In this document: one piece after another, positions 2,136 through 25,156 of the stretch
Numbering within the stretch: position 1 is the first letter of the stretch
Layout of the letters: each line of letters starts with the position of its first letter
Assembly: GCA_000614405.2 (NCBI GenBank)
Contig: GCA_000614405.2_3612.1
Direction: 5' to 3' (one strand)
Length of the DNA: 64,000 bases
DNA from: Escherichia coli O157:H7 str. 2011EL-2287
GTDB lineage: Bacteria; Pseudomonadota; Gammaproteobacteria; Enterobacterales; Enterobacteriaceae
Made by a program: the position numbers and the translations under genes
Notes under the pieces: model-generated
Seen by the model: only the letters and a program-made list of their open reading frames with translations
What the model was told of the DNA's origin: nothing
Databases searched by the model: none

Positions 2136-4565
2136 ATGAGCATGTGGTCGTTCGACTTTGAGTCATCCGGTTTGCTGGAAGACCCAGATCTTTATTATCA
2201 CTGCGGCCTGTTTAAAGAGCTGAATAAGAACCGTTTTATGCTGTTCCTTCCTCTAAATGACCGCACACACTACTCCGAGGAGGATATAGAAAAGGCTAAG
2301 AACTTCATTCTGGCAAAGAAAACTCTTTATAAAGATTTTGAAGTTCGCATAGCAGATTTTTCAGAGTTGGAAGGTTGGCTTACAGGAAATTCTGACTGGT
2401 CACCAACAGCTTTGAACTGCCATAACTGCTACAGTTATGACTTTATGCTGATGGAAAGATTATCTGGTATTCATTTTGATATGTTCCGTGATCCTAAATG
2501 TATGGGGACTATCAACGATCACCAGGTTAACCTGTTTGATACGTTGGCGATGAGCCGAATCTTGTGGCCTGATCGCCCTTTACCAAAAGGTTGTCCGGAC
2601 TCTGTATTCAACCCGGTTACTAAGAAAATGCAGCCTGTTGGTCCTCACGGCCTTATGGCATGGGGCTACGCCCTTGGTAACCAGAAAGTTCAAATTGATG
2701 ACTGGCGCGATCTTCCGTTATGGAAGTATGTGGATCGTGTATTTGAGGACGTTATCATCCAGGAGCTGCTCTGGAAAGAGCTGGTAGCGGAATCAAAAGG
2801 TGTATTCTACGGCAAATCTGACATGCAGAACTTTATGTACGATCCTGCCAAAGAGAAGCCGAAAGGGTTCAAGAAGATCACCTGGAAGAACGCATTACGT
2901 CGAGGCATGTTGCAGCACTTCCTGATGGAGCTGCAGGCCCGTCAGGGTGTATACTTCGACATAGATGGAGCTATTGCTTTACGTGACCGTTGCGATGCGT
3001 GGATGAAAGAAATCGCTGATCGTGTTGAACCACAACTGCCTTTAAAAGAGCTGTTAATGTCTCAGCGGCCCAAGTTCCCTGAAAAGCCGTTTAACCAAGA
3101 TGGGACAATCTCTAATAATGGTTGGAAATGGTTAAAAGATAAGCTTGGCTATCCTGTGGACATGAGTGCTTTAGAGTTCAAAGCCCCACCTAAGCGAGCA
3201 TTTACCTCTACAGGAGATGTCAGTAAGATGGGGATAAAATGGTGTGAAGAGATGGGCTGCAAAGACCACGATAAGATGGCTGATTTCTTGAGAGGCTATA
3301 TTAAGGGCACCTCCACACCACAACCTTTACCTAAAGAGCTGATGGATCAGGCAATAAGCGATCTGCAGCAGAAGCGAATGCCTGACTGCAAGATACCTAT
3401 GAAAATCAGCAATCAGGACGATATTAAGCGATACCTGATCAGTGCTGGTTGGCTTCCGACAATGTGGAGAACTAAGGATGTAACTAAAGACAGCAAGAAG
3501 AAAGCTTTACCTGATGCAGATGTTGATGCACGAGTATATGCATATATGGACGAGCTTTTGGAGTCAGAGTATTGTGACCTAATTATCAACTTCTGGAACA
3601 AAACTGATGCTAAGTTCCAGACAACCGTGCACAAGTTCCGAAGCTTTCCTAACTCCGAAAGGATTAAAAAGGAAGTATTCGGGAAAATACGTAGAAAAGC
3701 TAGGGCACTTATTACTTCTCCGCAACTGAAAGATACGTTTGGACACCTGTGTCCGAATCTTGAAAAATTGAACGGAGAGATGGCTAAAGATATCGTCTTA
3801 TGGTTATCATTGCGAAACCGCAGATCGGTCCTTGATCCACTCAAGGAGGATAAGGTTGACACTGGTCTTCTTAATCACCCACGCTTGAAGATTGACCATA
3901 AGCTTCCTGCTAAAAGTTCTGGGCTAACAAACACTTCCAGACAGAAACACAGTATTTGTGCAAACATGCCTAAACCATCTCCTAAAGTGGTTATGGGTAA
4001 AGAGATGCGTAGTCTATGGGGTGTTCCTCCGGGATACTTTGAGATCGGTATTGACGGGTCCAACTTAGAGCAGCTTATCGGAGCTTGGGGTGCCTTTGAG
4101 TTCGACAACGGCTTGTATTATGATGTTGTAAGTAACGGGGACGCACACCAAAACAATGCTGAGGCATATACAAAAGTAGCAGGTAGAGAGGTGTCTCGTA
4201 ACGACGGTAAACCTATCACGTATGGGGTTATGTACGGGGCACAAAAAGATAAAGTTGCAGACATGCTGGATATCTCTCCAGAGTTGGGACAAAGGGTAAT
4301 CGATGCACTCTGGGATGCCAACCCTGGTCTTAAGGGGCGCAAAGAGGATCTGGAGAAATTCTGGGAAGCAACAGGTAAGAAGTTTATCTACTCTTTTGAT
4401 GGTCATGCTATCTGGACCCGATCTAAACACTCTTTACTTAATGCATACCAACAGAATGGTGGTGCATCGCTGTGTGACTTAGTTGGGATACTCATGCACC
4501 ACCAAATGGTGAAGCGTGGGTGGTACGATGAAGGTGTTCGTCGTATTATTTATTACCATAAATAA
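2136..4565 (+). CDS. DNA polymerase, family A, exon 1 (3'-5' exonuclease domain plus polymerase motifs A and B); ORF as read stops 2 codons into an intron, true exon end about 4559
   Basis: Exo I FDFESSG; motif A IGIDGSNLEQL; motif B RNDGKPITYGVMYG; ends ...RRIIYYH exactly at the His of motif C (HDE); SD AAGGAG upstream. Confidence 0.88.
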   Translation: MSMWSFDFESSGLLEDPDLYYHCGLFKELNKNRFMLFLPLNDRTHYSEEDIEKAKNFILAKKTLYKDFEVRIADFSELEGWLTGNSDWSPTALNCHNCYSYDFMLMERLSGIHFDMFRDPKCMGTINDHQVNLFDTLAMSRILWPDRPLPKGCPDSVFNPVTKKMQPVGPHGLMAWGYALGNQKVQIDDWRDLPLWKYVDRVFEDVIIQELLWKELVAESKGVFYGKSDMQNFMYDPAKEKPKGFKKITWKNALRRGMLQHFLMELQARQGVYFDIDGAIALRDRCDAWMKEIADRVEPQLPLKELLMSQRPKFPEKPFNQDGTISNNGWKWLKDKLGYPVDMSALEFKAPPKRAFTSTGDVSKMGIKWCEEMGCKDHDKMADFLRGYIKGTSTPQPLPKELMDQAISDLQQKRMPDCKIPMKISNQDDIKRYLISAGWLPTMWRTKDVTKDSKKKALPDADVDARVYAYMDELLESEYCDLIINFWNKTDAKFQTTVHKFRSFPNSERIKKEVFGKIRRKARALITSPQLKDTFGHLCPNLEKLNGEMAKDIVLWLSLRNRRSVLDPLKEDKVDTGLLNHPRLKIDHKLPAKSSGLTNTSRQKHSICANMPKPSPKVVMGKEMRSLWGVPPGYFEIGIDGSNLEQLIGAWGAFEFDNGLYYDVVSNGDAHQNNAEAYTKVAGREVSRNDGKPITYGVMYGAQKDKVADMLDISPELGQRVIDALWDANPGLKGRKEDLEKFWEATGKKFIYSFDGHAIWTRSKHSLLNAYQQNGGASLCDLVGILMHHQMVKRGWYDEGVRRIIYYHK

Positions 4566-4835
4566 CATTGTGGCTTCATAGAGTAATCTATGTCGAATAA
4601 CCTCTTTAACTGCGGGAAGCCTAAACCTTATGGCAAGGTAATCCGCAACGAAGCGCTCAAAAGAGCGAACGCTCAGAGGCCATTCCGAAAGGAAGTAGAC
4701 CAGCAAGTGCGGTCGAAATGGGAGGATTCCTGTGGTTGCTTATCATAGGAATATGAGATGGTCCGATCCTACGTGAAAACGTATGGCTATGCACGTAATG
4801 GTGCGGGGTAGCTTAACGACCTACCTGAACTATTG
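4560..4835 (+). ncRNA. putative group I self-splicing intron (no homing endonuclease ORF) interrupting the DNA polymerase gene
   Basis: 276-nt gap between pol exons; preceded by U, ends in G; contains AACUGCGGGAAG and AAUCCGCAAC resembling group I P/Q core elements; flanking exons restore YYH-DEY (motif C). Confidence 0.6.
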
Positions 4836-12819: not shown

Positions 12820-13145
12820 CAGAGATCATCATTTCAACTGCAGGGTATGTGTTCCTGACAATCATTGCACTGACCATTCTGGTGGTGGTATATGGAATTG
12901 TTATTCTCCCTATTCTTGAGACAATTAGTTTGTGTCGGTGTTGGAGAAAGGCTTACGGTCCACAGCCGTGGAAGGACTGGCCCCACCTGGTGCACATAGC
13001 GTTCTCTTATGCTTATGATCACGCCAGCAGTGCATGCATAACCGGGTATCACGCCCACAACTGGAGCTGGGAAGGGTTGAGGAAATGGAATGTTACAAAG
13101 ACCATACCTCTGCGCATGTACAAACCTAAAAACAAAGACAGCTGA
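12816..13145 (+). CDS. hypothetical membrane protein
   Basis: ORF; hydrophobic N-terminal segment LTIIALTILVVVYGIVILPIL. Confidence 0.5.
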   Translation: MTEIIISTAGYVFLTIIALTILVVVYGIVILPILETISLCRCWRKAYGPQPWKDWPHLVHIAFSYAYDHASSACITGYHAHNWSWEGLRKWNVTKTIPLRMYKPKNKDS

Positions 13146-13740
13146 TACTTGAAAATTCCTGGCATATCAAGTATAAGGGGGATTTCTAAAATGGATTTCC
13201 TCCTTTTGATATTTCACCGGGCCGGATATTTTAAAATTCTTAGAAAATCAGAAAATGGATCGAAAACTAAAATGGATTTTTCAGAGTAGGCGCGACAAGC
13301 TGAATAACTCATCCTATCGTTTGCACCATATTCCAGACCACCATTATAGATTTCCCGCACATGCTTACATCTCGCTACTAGAACTTCCTCCACTTACCCT
13401 TGACCTTTTATAGCAATAATCCAACCACTATCTTGAAGTTGCGGTGCAGCTTTCCAGGTACTCGATCTGTTTTTCGTTTCAAAGATTGAATTTTCTGAAA
13501 ATTTTTCTCGATAAATTTCTCAGTACTCGATCTGTTTTTCGTTTTCTGAATCGGATTTTCTGGAAATCGCTCCGGCTCTTGGCCTAAACTTTTTGGGGAC
13601 GAAATCGATTTTTCGTTTTCAGAAATGGATTTTTAAAATTTCTATATGGGAATATTTTAGTGGATACTATTTTATAGGAAATTGTTACGGAGGGTAATTA
13701 GCGTGCTAATTAAATTTATTAAATGCGAGGAGTTCTCATT
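13146..13740. repeat. ORF-free AT-rich region with iteron-like direct repeats (candidate replication origin or control region)
   Basis: AAAATGGAT(T) motif at least 4 times; 22-bp direct repeat GTACTCGATCTGTTTTTCGTTT twice (about 13459 and 13523); GATTTTCTGGAAA-type repeats; no ORF with SD. Confidence 0.5.
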
Positions 13741-13748
13741 TAGAATTT

Positions 13749-13766
13749 TGAATGATAATCATTCTC
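13749..13766 (+). promoter_or_regulatory. Fur-box-like operator 1
   Basis: TGAATGATAATCATTCTC, about 15/19 match to GATAATGATAATCATTATC consensus. Confidence 0.4.
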
Positions 13767-13865
13767 GTTTGCAGAATAACGGGCAGGCCCGGTGATTGTC
13801 TCCCGGCCCCTACTGCCCCGGCTTGTTATTATAGTAACACACAGGACAAAGAAAGCAAGAAGTTT

Positions 13866-13902
13866 TTGCATAAATTTTTAGACGATAATGATAATCGTTC
13901 TC
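13866..13902 (+). promoter_or_regulatory. sigma70-like promoter (TTGCAT-N18-GATAAT) overlapped by Fur-box-like operator 2
   Basis: GATAATGATAATCGTTCTC is 17/19 to Fur consensus and overlaps the -10 hexamer, the classic Fur-repressed architecture. Confidence 0.45.
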
Positions 13903-14164
13903 ATTTCATGCAGCGCCCATCCCCGGTGGTTGTCTCCCCCGTCACCGGTGCCTGCCGTCCTTTCGATAGGTATATTTTGCCACCTGGCGGGGCCGCTGTC
14001 AACACTTTTCAAAAAAAAAAATTTCTAACCTGATGCGCTGACCGCTGCAACCTGGCGGGGCCAGCCTGGCAGGGCCTAACTGACCAGGTAGGAGAGAATG
14101 AAGGCTTGCAAACCTGGTGGGCCTATGCTATAGGATAGGTAACAATTGAAGAGGAGGTACAAAA

Positions 14165-14341
14165 ATGGAAGGTAATATGATCCCCCTGGAAAATGTAGCT
14201 ATTAATGACGCTGAGGCTATCGCCCTGGTTGAAAAGGCTATGGCGGGAGCGTTGGAACATAAAGAAGAGTACGAAAAAATGATGGTTAACCTGGCAGGGG
14301 CGGCGGCTGGAGAATTCTACCCAAAAAATAATTTTAACTAA
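14165..14341 (+). CDS. hypothetical small protein (58 aa)
   Basis: ORF below track cutoff; strong SD GAAGAGGAGG 7 nt before ATG. Confidence 0.5.
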   Translation: MEGNMIPLENVAINDAEAIALVEKAMAGALEHKEEYEKMMVNLAGAAAGEFYPKNNFN

Positions 14342-22549: not shown

Positions 22550-22580
22550 AAACAGGGCTTGCAATGGTCCTGTTTTTTGT
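22550..22580 (+). terminator. rho-independent terminator
   Basis: CAGGGC-loop-GTCCTG hairpin followed by TTTTTTGTT. Confidence 0.65.
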
Positions 22581-22744
22581 TATACTTATTCCACGGCAGG
22601 CACCTGGCGACGGGGGAGACAATCACCGGGCCTGCCTGTCATATAAGAACTATAAAAACCGTTGACATCTGCCATGGGGTGGGGTAACATTTATCTTGAA
22701 GGGGCAAAAGTGCCCACACAACACCCAGGAGAGAGGAAAACATT

Positions 22745-23017
22745 ATGTCAAGCTGGATTAATCAAGAAGTCGAATCACGTTTTAATGCTATATGGGATCT
22801 CATCGAAAAAGAGGACGGAACATCAAGCCCCTACCTCAACAATTTGGAATTCCATTTTGTGGAAGCGATGAACGCAGAACATGATCACGAAGGTGGCGCA
22901 GATGAGTTCGCTAAAGGTTATGGCTTTAACAATGCCAACGAAATGATCGAGGCGGTAGTACTCCAGGCTGAGGAAGATTATCAATTAAAAACGCTTGAAT
23001 TCTGCCGCCGTAAGTAA
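22745..23017 (+). CDS. hypothetical protein
   Basis: ORF with SD AGGAGAGAGGAAAA; upstream TTGACA promoter and hairpin. Confidence 0.55.
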   Translation: MSSWINQEVESRFNAIWDLIEKEDGTSSPYLNNLEFHFVEAMNAEHDHEGGADEFAKGYGFNNANEMIEAVVLQAEEDYQLKTLEFCRRK

Positions 23018-24246: not shown

Positions 24247-25156
24247 TCTGATCTTCCCCCTACCATAAACGGCCCTACCTGGCAAGTGGAATAATTGACG
24301 AGCCATCAACCCCACACACTGTACAAATATACATGGAAAATAACTATTGCATAATTTTTCATTGTGTGGTAGCAAGTCCATTTTTACCCGTTTTCTCTCC
24401 CAAAAGTGCACGTAATGCCGCTATTGCACAAATTTTAACCTGATGCACATCTCCAATATCTTGTCAACAACTAAAAATCTTTATAAGTCATACACTTACA
24501 CAGCATCGAAAGCGTGTTCTACGCGAAAAATCGAGTATAACTATAGCCGCCAGATCTCAGAATTCACGTACGCACGCCATTCTATAGCCTGCAAAGTATT
24601 TATTCCAACCACAGAATAACGGAATAGTCAATACCTGCATAAAATAATTATTCGTGTAAACTGCATAACATAAATCAGCTCAGGTGTCAACATTTTTCGT
24701 AAACAGTCCGAAATTATCACGATGAGTTATCATAAACAGAGAAATCTTTAGTCGTCTAATGTTTACTGTACATTACTATATTGACTGGAATCATTAGATG
24801 ACTAATAGAAAGATAAGAAATAATTAACAATACAATTATTTTATCTGTAACAATAAGGCAACTATGCAAACGAATGGCATGGCGCGACGGAGTCGCGACA
24901 TAATATAAAAGCAGTAACCATCACCCCCGTGATAGTTTGTCTGCAATCTATTAATCAGATCATAGTTGCCTTGTATTTAGTTAATCATGACATAACAAGC
25001 AAGGCAACTATAGATCTGCTAATAGTTGCCCTGCTTTTATATTATGTCATAGAAACACCCGAAGGGGTGACCAAAGGTCACCTGGCATAGCCAGTGAAAT
25101 ATTGTAAACAAGTTAATTATTGTCATGCAAACGAATGGCATGGCTTATCATCTCTG

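Follow-up and report, generated by a model that had tools for sequence, protein, structure and literature searches.

What does a gene-free, AT-rich kilobase do in the genome of a virulent phage? The window analyzed here is a stretch of 64,000 nucleotides from an assembly of Escherichia coli O157:H7 str. 2011EL-2287 (contig GCA_000614405.2_3612.1). It belongs to an rV5-like coliphage of the genus Vequintavirus and matches many E. coli rV5-like myoviruses, such as PDX, FFH2, WalterGehring and rV5, at 94–99% identity. An earlier note on this DNA had flagged positions 13146–13740 as an iteron cluster and interpreted it as a replication origin. We find that the flagged cluster is the left two-thirds of a single conserved non-coding cis-acting control region of rV5-like phages at 13146–14164, referred to as the hub, and that it is the best candidate for the phage replication origin. 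Tentatively, we read the hub as an origin activated by transcription and gated by the host protein Fur.

The gene-free gap ends at 14164, beyond the 13740 given previously, and the hub measures about 1 kb. Small open reading frames (ORFs) are mechanically present in the gap, and mutually inconsistent ones are annotated across several GenBank records. Among seven Vequintaviruses, however, the variable columns of these ORFs show no bias by codon position (24/25/20, 23/20/25, 8/9/11 and 9/6/10), while the flanking genes of the same phages are strongly biased, with third-position variation of 45/65, 51/79 and 44/55. The reading frames of the gap are broken in rV5, HMD-6 and slur16, and cross-genus tblastn matches to the gap spread over all six frames. 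Taken together, the absent codon-position bias, the broken frames and the six-frame matches rule out small proteins encoded in the gap, in agreement with the claim that it has no coding potential. The matches of gap ORFs to phrog_35702 and phrog_14993 in PHROG are only an echo of the prior annotation of those ORFs. Annotators have placed spurious ORFs in a family-wide non-coding module. Beside the hub, the ORF at 14165–14341, annotated in relatives, has a codon-position variation of 10/14/16; it may not be a gene, because it lacks third-position bias and contains 12 gap columns.

The sequence features described in the earlier note are present where it had placed them. The flagged region is AT-rich, with a GC content of 0.36 against 0.429 in the window, falling to 0.32 over 13455–13750, and nearest-neighbor free energy identifies 13624–13723 as the second least stable 100-bp stretch of the 64 kb. 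The 22-bp direct repeat GTACTCGATCTGTTTTTCGTTT occurs in exactly two copies (13458–13479 and 13523–13544), with a degenerate third core within the long units. The count of at least four AAAATGGAT copies holds for three exact ones, and the fourth, GAAATGGATT at 13621–13630, carries one mismatch; the whole window has four exact copies against 1.45 expected. Two repeats of the ATTTTCTG(G)AAA type are found. The unit core CTCGATCNNTTTTTCG has only one further match in the 64 kb, with two mismatches, and none of 100 shuffles reached three matches. The repeat motifs are essentially unique to this place in the 64 kb.

Conservation within the gap is a mosaic. Identities of 0.94 over the repeat units and 0.965–0.969 over 13748–14005 stand beside 0.72 in the spacer and 0.67 at the right edge, which argues for two non-coding islands under purifying selection. 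Outside the genus, blastn reaches distant relatives only over about 13710–13860 of the gap. The arrangement of parts nevertheless recurs in at least six other genera. The same order of parts is present in the gaps of Seunavirus (PVP-SE1, GAP31, 4MG), Mydovirus (Mydo, VIK251) and Certrevirus (CB7), and it is likewise kept in Henunavirus (Hena1) and Phapecoctavirus (anhysbys, with unrelated long repeats): short repeats, long units, one to three AT-rich palindromes, a GC-rich segment and promoter-like hexamers. At the left edge, GAP31, 4MG, PVP-SE1, Mydo and Hena1 carry two to three copies of GATATTT, spaced by 12 bp in Seunavirus and Mydovirus, and then one to three copies of AAATGGNTTT. The hubs of other genera also contain TTATCTCAAA two to three times, a family not seen in Vequintavirus.

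At the same place as the long units of the window, the non-coding regions of Seunavirus, Mydovirus, Certrevirus and Henunavirus contain units that join a core GGTNCTCGATC to a TTTTTC run, a small palindrome and an A6T5-6 tract. In all, homologous units are counted in five genera other than Vequintavirus. These units strengthen the view of an iteron cluster in AT-rich non-coding DNA. Most of these phages have three units at 67–76 bp, GAP31 has three copies of a 62-nt unit, and CB7 has six 13-nt copies of CCGG(G/T)TCTCGATC spaced by 20–32 bp. In Erwinia phage Hena1 the core is changed in concert to GACTTGAG, which, as far as sequence comparison tells, is the behavior of protein-binding iterons. 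The hub-flanking proteins of the other genera have no homologue in the window; therefore, the hub is conserved independently of its neighbors. At the right end of the hub, we notice in other genera a small leftward gene of about 61–63 aa with its own sigma70 promoter (1817–2008 in locus L135, 2794–2976 in L004 and 1826–2011 in L134, all on the minus strand). No homologue of it was found in the window, and the GAP31 copy matches Pfam DUF7170.

Just right of 13740 lie a pair of canonical Fur boxes and a tandem pair of leftward sigma70 promoters that the earlier note did not mention. Matches to the Fur consensus are expected by chance only 0.02 times per 64 kb at three or fewer mismatches, and none with two or fewer mismatches occurs in 1.06 Mb of unrelated viral contigs. 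Fur box 1 and the fhuA promoter of E. coli K-12 have the 16-mer ATAATCATTCTCGTTT in common. Depending on the phage, the hub carries one to three canonical boxes. The exact palindrome AATGAGAATCATTCTCATT, the form found in PVP-SE1, Hena1 and others, is carried by bacteria of many phyla (at least 120 genomes), and nine of ten ORFs just downstream of it in bacteria are clearly iron genes: an FTR1 permease, two FeoB, one FeoA, three TonB-dependent receptors and two Fur-family regulators. The tenth encodes an ABC-transporter ATPase. Because these bacterial neighbors are iron genes, the identity of the motif as a Fur box is settled at the level of sequence, and the same gene context rules out a phage-specific operator instead. 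The hub palindromes are thus solidly identified as canonical Fur boxes, and Fur is predicted to bind them. They resemble Fur-regulated bacterial promoters of the E. coli fhuA and ryhB type in being 19-bp boxes with 15–17 of 19 consensus positions, with a 16-mer identical to that of fhuA. In contrast to those promoters, the phage boxes lie 58–83 nt downstream of the predicted leftward starts, not clearly over a -10 or -35 element, and they belong to a virulent phage in which no iron-related gene follows them.

Both promoters read leftward, opposite to the flanking genes. On the way to the repeats, transcripts from them would cross a GC-rich hairpin, a Fur box and then the AT-rich segment, which by sequence prediction lies 100–200 nt downstream of the promoters. 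Just upstream of the -35 element of promoter P2, which the scan calls as strong, is an UP-element-like T-run (14021–14011, minus strand), and the length of this A/T run varies among phages. Orthologues of P2 read TTGCAA-17-TATATT or TATAGT in GAP31, Mydo and PVP-SE1. Promoter P1, with a predicted start near 13824, was read by eye, and a looser scan lists only an overlapping TTGCTT-19-TATAAT reading. Its orthologous hexamers, with diverged spacers, are read in PVP-SE1, GAP31, 4MG, Mydo, CB7, Hena1 and anhysbys, and the scan itself calls them in GAP31, Mydo and PVP-SE1. In those three gaps the scan finds four to five minus-strand promoters each, with totals of 7 against 3.0, 3.4 and 2.3 expected; in anhysbys it finds 12 sites (seven on the minus strand) against 3.9 expected.

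Table 1. Features of the hub, with its flanking genes and the polymerase intron, at their positions in the window. Identity is the mean pairwise value among seven Vequintaviruses; Fur boxes are scored against GATAATGATAATCATTATC, the 19-bp E. coli Fur consensus.
Feature	Position	Strand	Identity	Remarks
Flanking genes			0.90–0.97	
Short-repeat cluster	13146–13290		0.88	GATACTT/GATATTT at 13144, 13208, 13225; AAAATGGAT at 13188, 13252, 13269
Imperfect 26-nt copies (two)	13144–13169, 13225–13250			81 bp apart, within the short-repeat cluster
Fast-evolving spacer	13291–13454		0.72	Inconsistent small ORFs on both strands, including 13214..13393(-), 59 aa
Three long direct-repeat units (65–74 bp)	A 13451–13515, B 13516–13589, C 13590–13650			
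Repeat units, segment compared	13455–13650		0.94	Identity equal to or above flanking genes
Palindromes ATTTTCTG(G)AAAT	13490–13502, 13555–13567			Count reached in 0/100 shuffles
Hairpin, 15 bp with G.U pairs, then U-rich run	13590–13625	+		Terminator-like on + strand only
AT-rich low-stability DNA, candidate unwinding element	13624–13723			Contains 8-2-8 palindrome TAATTAGCGTGCTAATTA at 13695–13712
Half-box-like GAGTTCTCATTTAGAA	13729–13745			Beside Fur box 1
Segment with Fur boxes, hairpins and promoters	13748–14005		0.965–0.969	
Fur box 1, TTGAATGATAATCATTCTC	13748–13766		0.965	15/19 to consensus
GC-rich hairpin 1, core CGGTGATTGTCTC	13781–13818	-		Just downstream of P1 start; -21.6 kcal/mol, z -0.7
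Promoter P1	13858–13831	-		-35 TTGCTT (13858–13853), 16-nt spacer, TGT-extended -10 TACTAT (13836–13831); by eye
Fur box 2, GATAATGATAATCGTTCTC	13884–13902			17/19 to consensus
GC-rich hairpin 2, core CGGTGGTTGTCTC	13910–13956	-		With box 2, tandem duplicate of hairpin 1 and box 1, offset 134–136 bp
Promoter P2	14002–13974	-		-35 TTGACA (14002–13997), 17-nt spacer, TG-extended -10 CAAAAT (13979–13974); promoter scan, 10/12
Variable right edge of gap	14006–14164		0.67	Four CCTGGCGGGG-type repeats at 13981, 14049, 14063, 14111; indels
Group I intron	4550–4785			Rfam RF00028, 64.7 bits; end of DNA polymerase ORF 2136–4565

As exceptional structures, GC-rich hairpins 1 and 2 were rejected, for they fold no better than shuffles. 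A third promoter-plus-hairpin module is located at 22559–22636 on the plus strand, where TTGCAA-16-TATACT is followed by GGCAGG...CCTGCC with the core GAGACAATCACCG (z = -2.9). It sits in the 5' leader of an ordinary gene starting at 22745, overlaps the terminator of the upstream gene and has no Fur box. The polarity of the module is fixed by this copy, because the same module precedes an ordinary gene there. Meanwhile, the least stable and most AT-rich stretch of the 64 kb, at 24639–24855, is followed by CACCCCCGTGATAGTTTGTCTGC (24925–24950), which resembles the hairpin core CGGTGATTGTCTC and may be a degenerate fourth copy of it.

A gp4-type primase-helicase (14–2077) and a family A DNA polymerase, PolA (2136–4565), form a T7-like replisome; the polymerase gene is split, since a group I intron lies at its end. 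Given this T7-type replisome, the closest working model for the hub is a transcription-activated origin such as the T7 primary origin or T4 oriE. The plasmid-type oriV that had been proposed is a less apt model. The promoters and Fur boxes point to a transcription-activated phage origin, or else to a purely transcriptional or non-coding RNA locus.

We therefore favor, at somewhat less than even confidence, a transcription-activated lytic origin gated by host Fur, which would follow the logic of the T7 primary origin and T4 oriE. In this model, the tandem sigma70 promoters P2 and P1 would fire leftward, against the flanking genes, and each transcript would cross a G-rich hairpin and a Fur box before entering the AT-rich DNA of lowest stability and then the three repeat units (13451–13650). 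A phage protein may bind the repeated cores GGTACTCGATC, and the A/T tracts may bend or open the DNA, whereupon the T7-like primase-helicase and PolA would take over. Host RNA polymerase would in this way activate or prime lytic replication, and Fur, occupying sites that separate the promoters from the AT-rich part, would make this transcription depend on the iron status of the cell. We infer the firing of the promoters, the binding of Fur, the binding of a protein to the repeats and the start of replication in the hub from these arrangements. In favor of a nucleoprotein site at the DNA level are the repeat families in fixed order, the concerted change of the 11-bp core, the low-stability segment, the promoters directed into it and the gene-free kilobase found throughout the family.

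In the T7 primary origin, an AT-rich segment follows two tandem promoters (phi1.1A/1.1B); T4 oriE and oriF combine a promoter with an unwinding element, to which oriE adds iterons. The hub is predicted to share with them two tandem promoters that run into an AT-rich low-stability segment with direct repeats nearby. It differs from T7 and T4 in that its promoters are of the host sigma70 type and point against the surrounding genes, with Fur boxes between them and the AT-rich part. Compared with the iteron origins of lambda and of plasmids (P1 oriR, RK2 oriV, pSC101), the hub likewise has direct repeats, at least three of them in a non-coding stretch, beside an AT-rich candidate unwinding element; relatives differ in the number and spacing of the copies, and the repeats change their sequence in concert. 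Unlike those origins, it has no Rep/O-type initiator gene found at or next to the iterons and no conserved DnaA boxes or, as judged by eye, IHF boxes, and its units are 65–76 bp long in most genera instead of being contiguous units of about 20 bp.

Several points weigh against an origin. The adjacency to replication genes that the earlier note had invoked does not hold: primase-helicase and polymerase are 9–13 kb away from the repeat cluster, with small genes of unknown function between, and no SSB gene was identified. A search for a Rep initiator, which that note had proposed, revealed no Rep/O-like or DNA-binding domain in the hub-neighboring proteins of the window or of the other genera, all of which are of unknown function; a novel initiator may be among them. 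The single DnaA-box match (7/9, 13659–13667) varies among Vequintaviruses. GATC is not enriched, with three sites in 1 kb against 5.8 per kb, and there is no skew inversion, the GC skew being positive on both flanks. The earlier origin interpretation is partly supported: its iteron and AT-rich part stands. The unit spacing of 65–76 bp is unusual for iterons. P1 has a weak -35 element (3/6) and is not called by the scan in the window, and there is no convincing terminator for the leftward transcripts; the hairpin at 13142–13177 was rejected as one (z = +0.7). The Fur boxes do not themselves argue for an origin, because they are plain promoter-proximal operators in many phages. Furthermore, the comparably conserved untranslated repeat regions of T5 have been ascribed to DNA injection, not replication (10.1101/866236).

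A cluster of Dam/GATC sites was also considered and rejected: despite the likeness of the iterons to the oriC 13-mers (GATCTnTTnTTTT), GATC occurs less often than expected and is missing from the Hena1 units.

Unit C folds, on the plus strand only, into a hairpin followed by a U-run, so that at least part of the array could act as an RNA or a terminator. The plus strand of 13590–13625 folds at -14.5 kcal/mol (z = -3.4), against -4.2 kcal/mol (z = -0.4) for the minus strand. This brings in the explanation that the hub is a non-coding RNA locus, which we consider rather doubtful: the hub would be transcribed, its product would act as RNA, and the repeat units would serve as RNA modules, for example hairpins that bind proteins. 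The transcript could be a leftward RNA of about 0.7 kb from P2/P1/P0, a rightward RNA from the Fur-box promoter, or both; in Seunavirus, Mydovirus and Certrevirus it could be a Fur-repressed rightward small RNA (sRNA) of about 215 nt that ends at a conserved terminator. Weak plus-strand promoters indeed overlap both Fur boxes of the window (TTGAAT-18-CAGAAT at 13748–13777 and TTGCAT-18-GATAAT at 13866–13895), the classic layout of Fur repression. In four genera, a terminator-like plus-strand hairpin GUUAGCCCCGCC..GUGGGGUGGCG with a U-rich run follows about 215 nt downstream, and its stem varies only by U.G to C-G changes and two double changes. Of the RNA elements it is the best supported. A conserved C/U-rich segment CCACCUUCC resembles an anti-Shine-Dalgarno seed. 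In PVP-SE1, Hena1, GAP31 and Mydo, the minus strand of the repeat block folds more stably than its shuffled versions (z -2.5 to -3.9), whereas that of Vequintavirus and Phapecoctavirus does not.

Other tests do not favor the RNA. Rfam 15 gives no match at the gathering score, only chance-level matches with E at least 0.7. On 17 sequences and 317 columns, RNAalifold yields a weak consensus for either strand (-17 and -19 kcal/mol, covariation term about -0.5), and a single conserved RNA fold for the box-promoter segment was rejected on this ground. A pair-count test is marginal, as five of 500 shuffles reach the observed value, within the stated false-positive range of the tool. The plus-strand box promoter lacks the essential A of its -10 element in Mydo-like and CB7-like phages, and in the window the terminator segment of the other genera is replaced by the duplicate hairpin and box. 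A core of 11 bp that changes in concert from unit to unit is more readily explained by protein-DNA recognition than by RNA structure. Since plus-strand promoters overlap the boxes, the sRNA of about 215 nt is coherent for Seunavirus and Mydovirus; the window lends it little support. As an observation on those genera, the putative segment from Fur box to terminator (about 215 nt; 1515–1760 in L135, 1523–1770 in L134 and 2490–2735 in L004) contains an invariant, anti-Shine-Dalgarno-like ACCGGCGATCCACCTTCC, and in Seunavirus, Mydovirus and Certrevirus it could be a Fur-repressed phage sRNA.

How Fur boxes are placed in other viruses bears on a further explanation, which we judge unlikely: the hub may be a transcriptional boundary with no role in replication, ending the upstream rightward operon and supplying strong early promoters. 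The repeats would be operators or architectural sites for Fur and a phage transcription factor that time the neighboring modules, comparable to the phi29 p4/p6 control region. At least 120 viral contigs (IMG/VR loci L176–L290) contain the pattern AATGA(G/T)AATCATTCTC(A/G)TTT, and none contains a composition-matched control; an earlier viral scan with a 15-base core pattern gave mostly chance matches and was not used. A sigma70-like promoter reads into the box at 58 of 129 viral sites (45%), against 47 of 223 control positions (21%), the distance from the -10 element to the box is mostly 8–13 nt, and sometimes two to three copies of the box are present. Fur boxes are thus typically promoter-proximal operators in other phages, as this explanation would have it, and the dense promoter-like sites in the gap, its terminator-like plus-strand hairpins and the promoter-plus-hairpin module before the ordinary gene at 22745 agree with it. 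Nevertheless, the leftward promoters have no gene to express, and the terminator stems of the units are AU-rich and weak. A role in transcription also leaves unexplained some 200 bp of repeats and AT-rich segment at 94% identity and the conserved order of four repeat families across genera.

The viral matches include the untranslated repeat regions in the left terminal repeat (LTR) of T5-like phages (L181, L218, L221, L236, L245 and L247; at 6.8–7.7 kb in DT57C), and a detailed analysis of the T5 repeat regions does not mention Fur (10.1101/866236). The T5 regions R1–R3, with their injection stop signal, resemble the hub in being non-coding stretches of about 1 kb packed with direct and inverted repeats, whose order is conserved across genera while the neighboring ORFs vary (10.1101/866236). 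The Fur-box palindrome is common to the T5 regions and the hub. A cis site for DNA packaging (pac) or entry would be the corresponding explanation, and headful packaging, if rV5-like phages use it, demands a pac site. We hold it very improbable. The T5 regions lie in a fixed terminal repeat with arrays of DnaA boxes, whereas the rV5 genome is reported as circularly permuted (PMC3606486), which makes an entry stop at a fixed distance from an end implausible, and the hub has no conserved DnaA box. No terminase gene lies nearby, nor is there a cluster of GATC or another known pac-type motif.

Two other ideas were rejected. As for a mimic of a type III antitoxin, the pseudo-ToxI repeats of phage phiTE sit elsewhere in that genome, and the hub repeats are presumably unlike the 36-nt repeats of ToxI. 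A host or plasmid source of the hub, or a satellite with the same iterons, found no match in E. coli genomes or in species-representative genomes, and among plasmids only a mis-filed phage genome. PLSDB lists it under CP057073.1 as a 137.6-kb 'plasmid', the E. coli host having come from cattle faeces, but it is an rV5-like phage genome with 96.5% identity across the gap. We also notice that the GenBank 'Campylobacter phage' records MG065635–MG065690 (host C. jejuni) are 95–99% identical to E. coli rV5-like or phi92-like phages and look mislabelled or contaminated.

Phages of the rV5 type rank among the coliphages isolated most often and are candidates for therapy, yet the literature defines no replication origin for them. 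Skew analysis in the rV5 genome paper did not place one; the paper drew a 'non-coding' box and described the genome as without fixed ends (PMC3606486). In the literature on rV5-like phages, we found no paper on these repeats, iterons, an origin or Fur boxes. The present result is a precisely bounded origin candidate with named parts. The Fur boxes are conserved across seven or more genera and recur in numerous other virulent phages; their presence suggests that lytic phages sense through Fur how much iron the host has. More broadly, and with considerable doubt, we speculate that virulent phages wire the host iron sensor into their control regions, with replication initiation (or a non-coding RNA) of rV5-like phages gated by iron, and that the device is widespread and unrecognized, extending to the T5 LTR and more than 100 uncultured viral contigs. 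If this is true, it would bear on how such phages behave where iron is scarce, for instance in the gut or in infected tissue, and iron or fur would offer a simple handle on phage gene expression.

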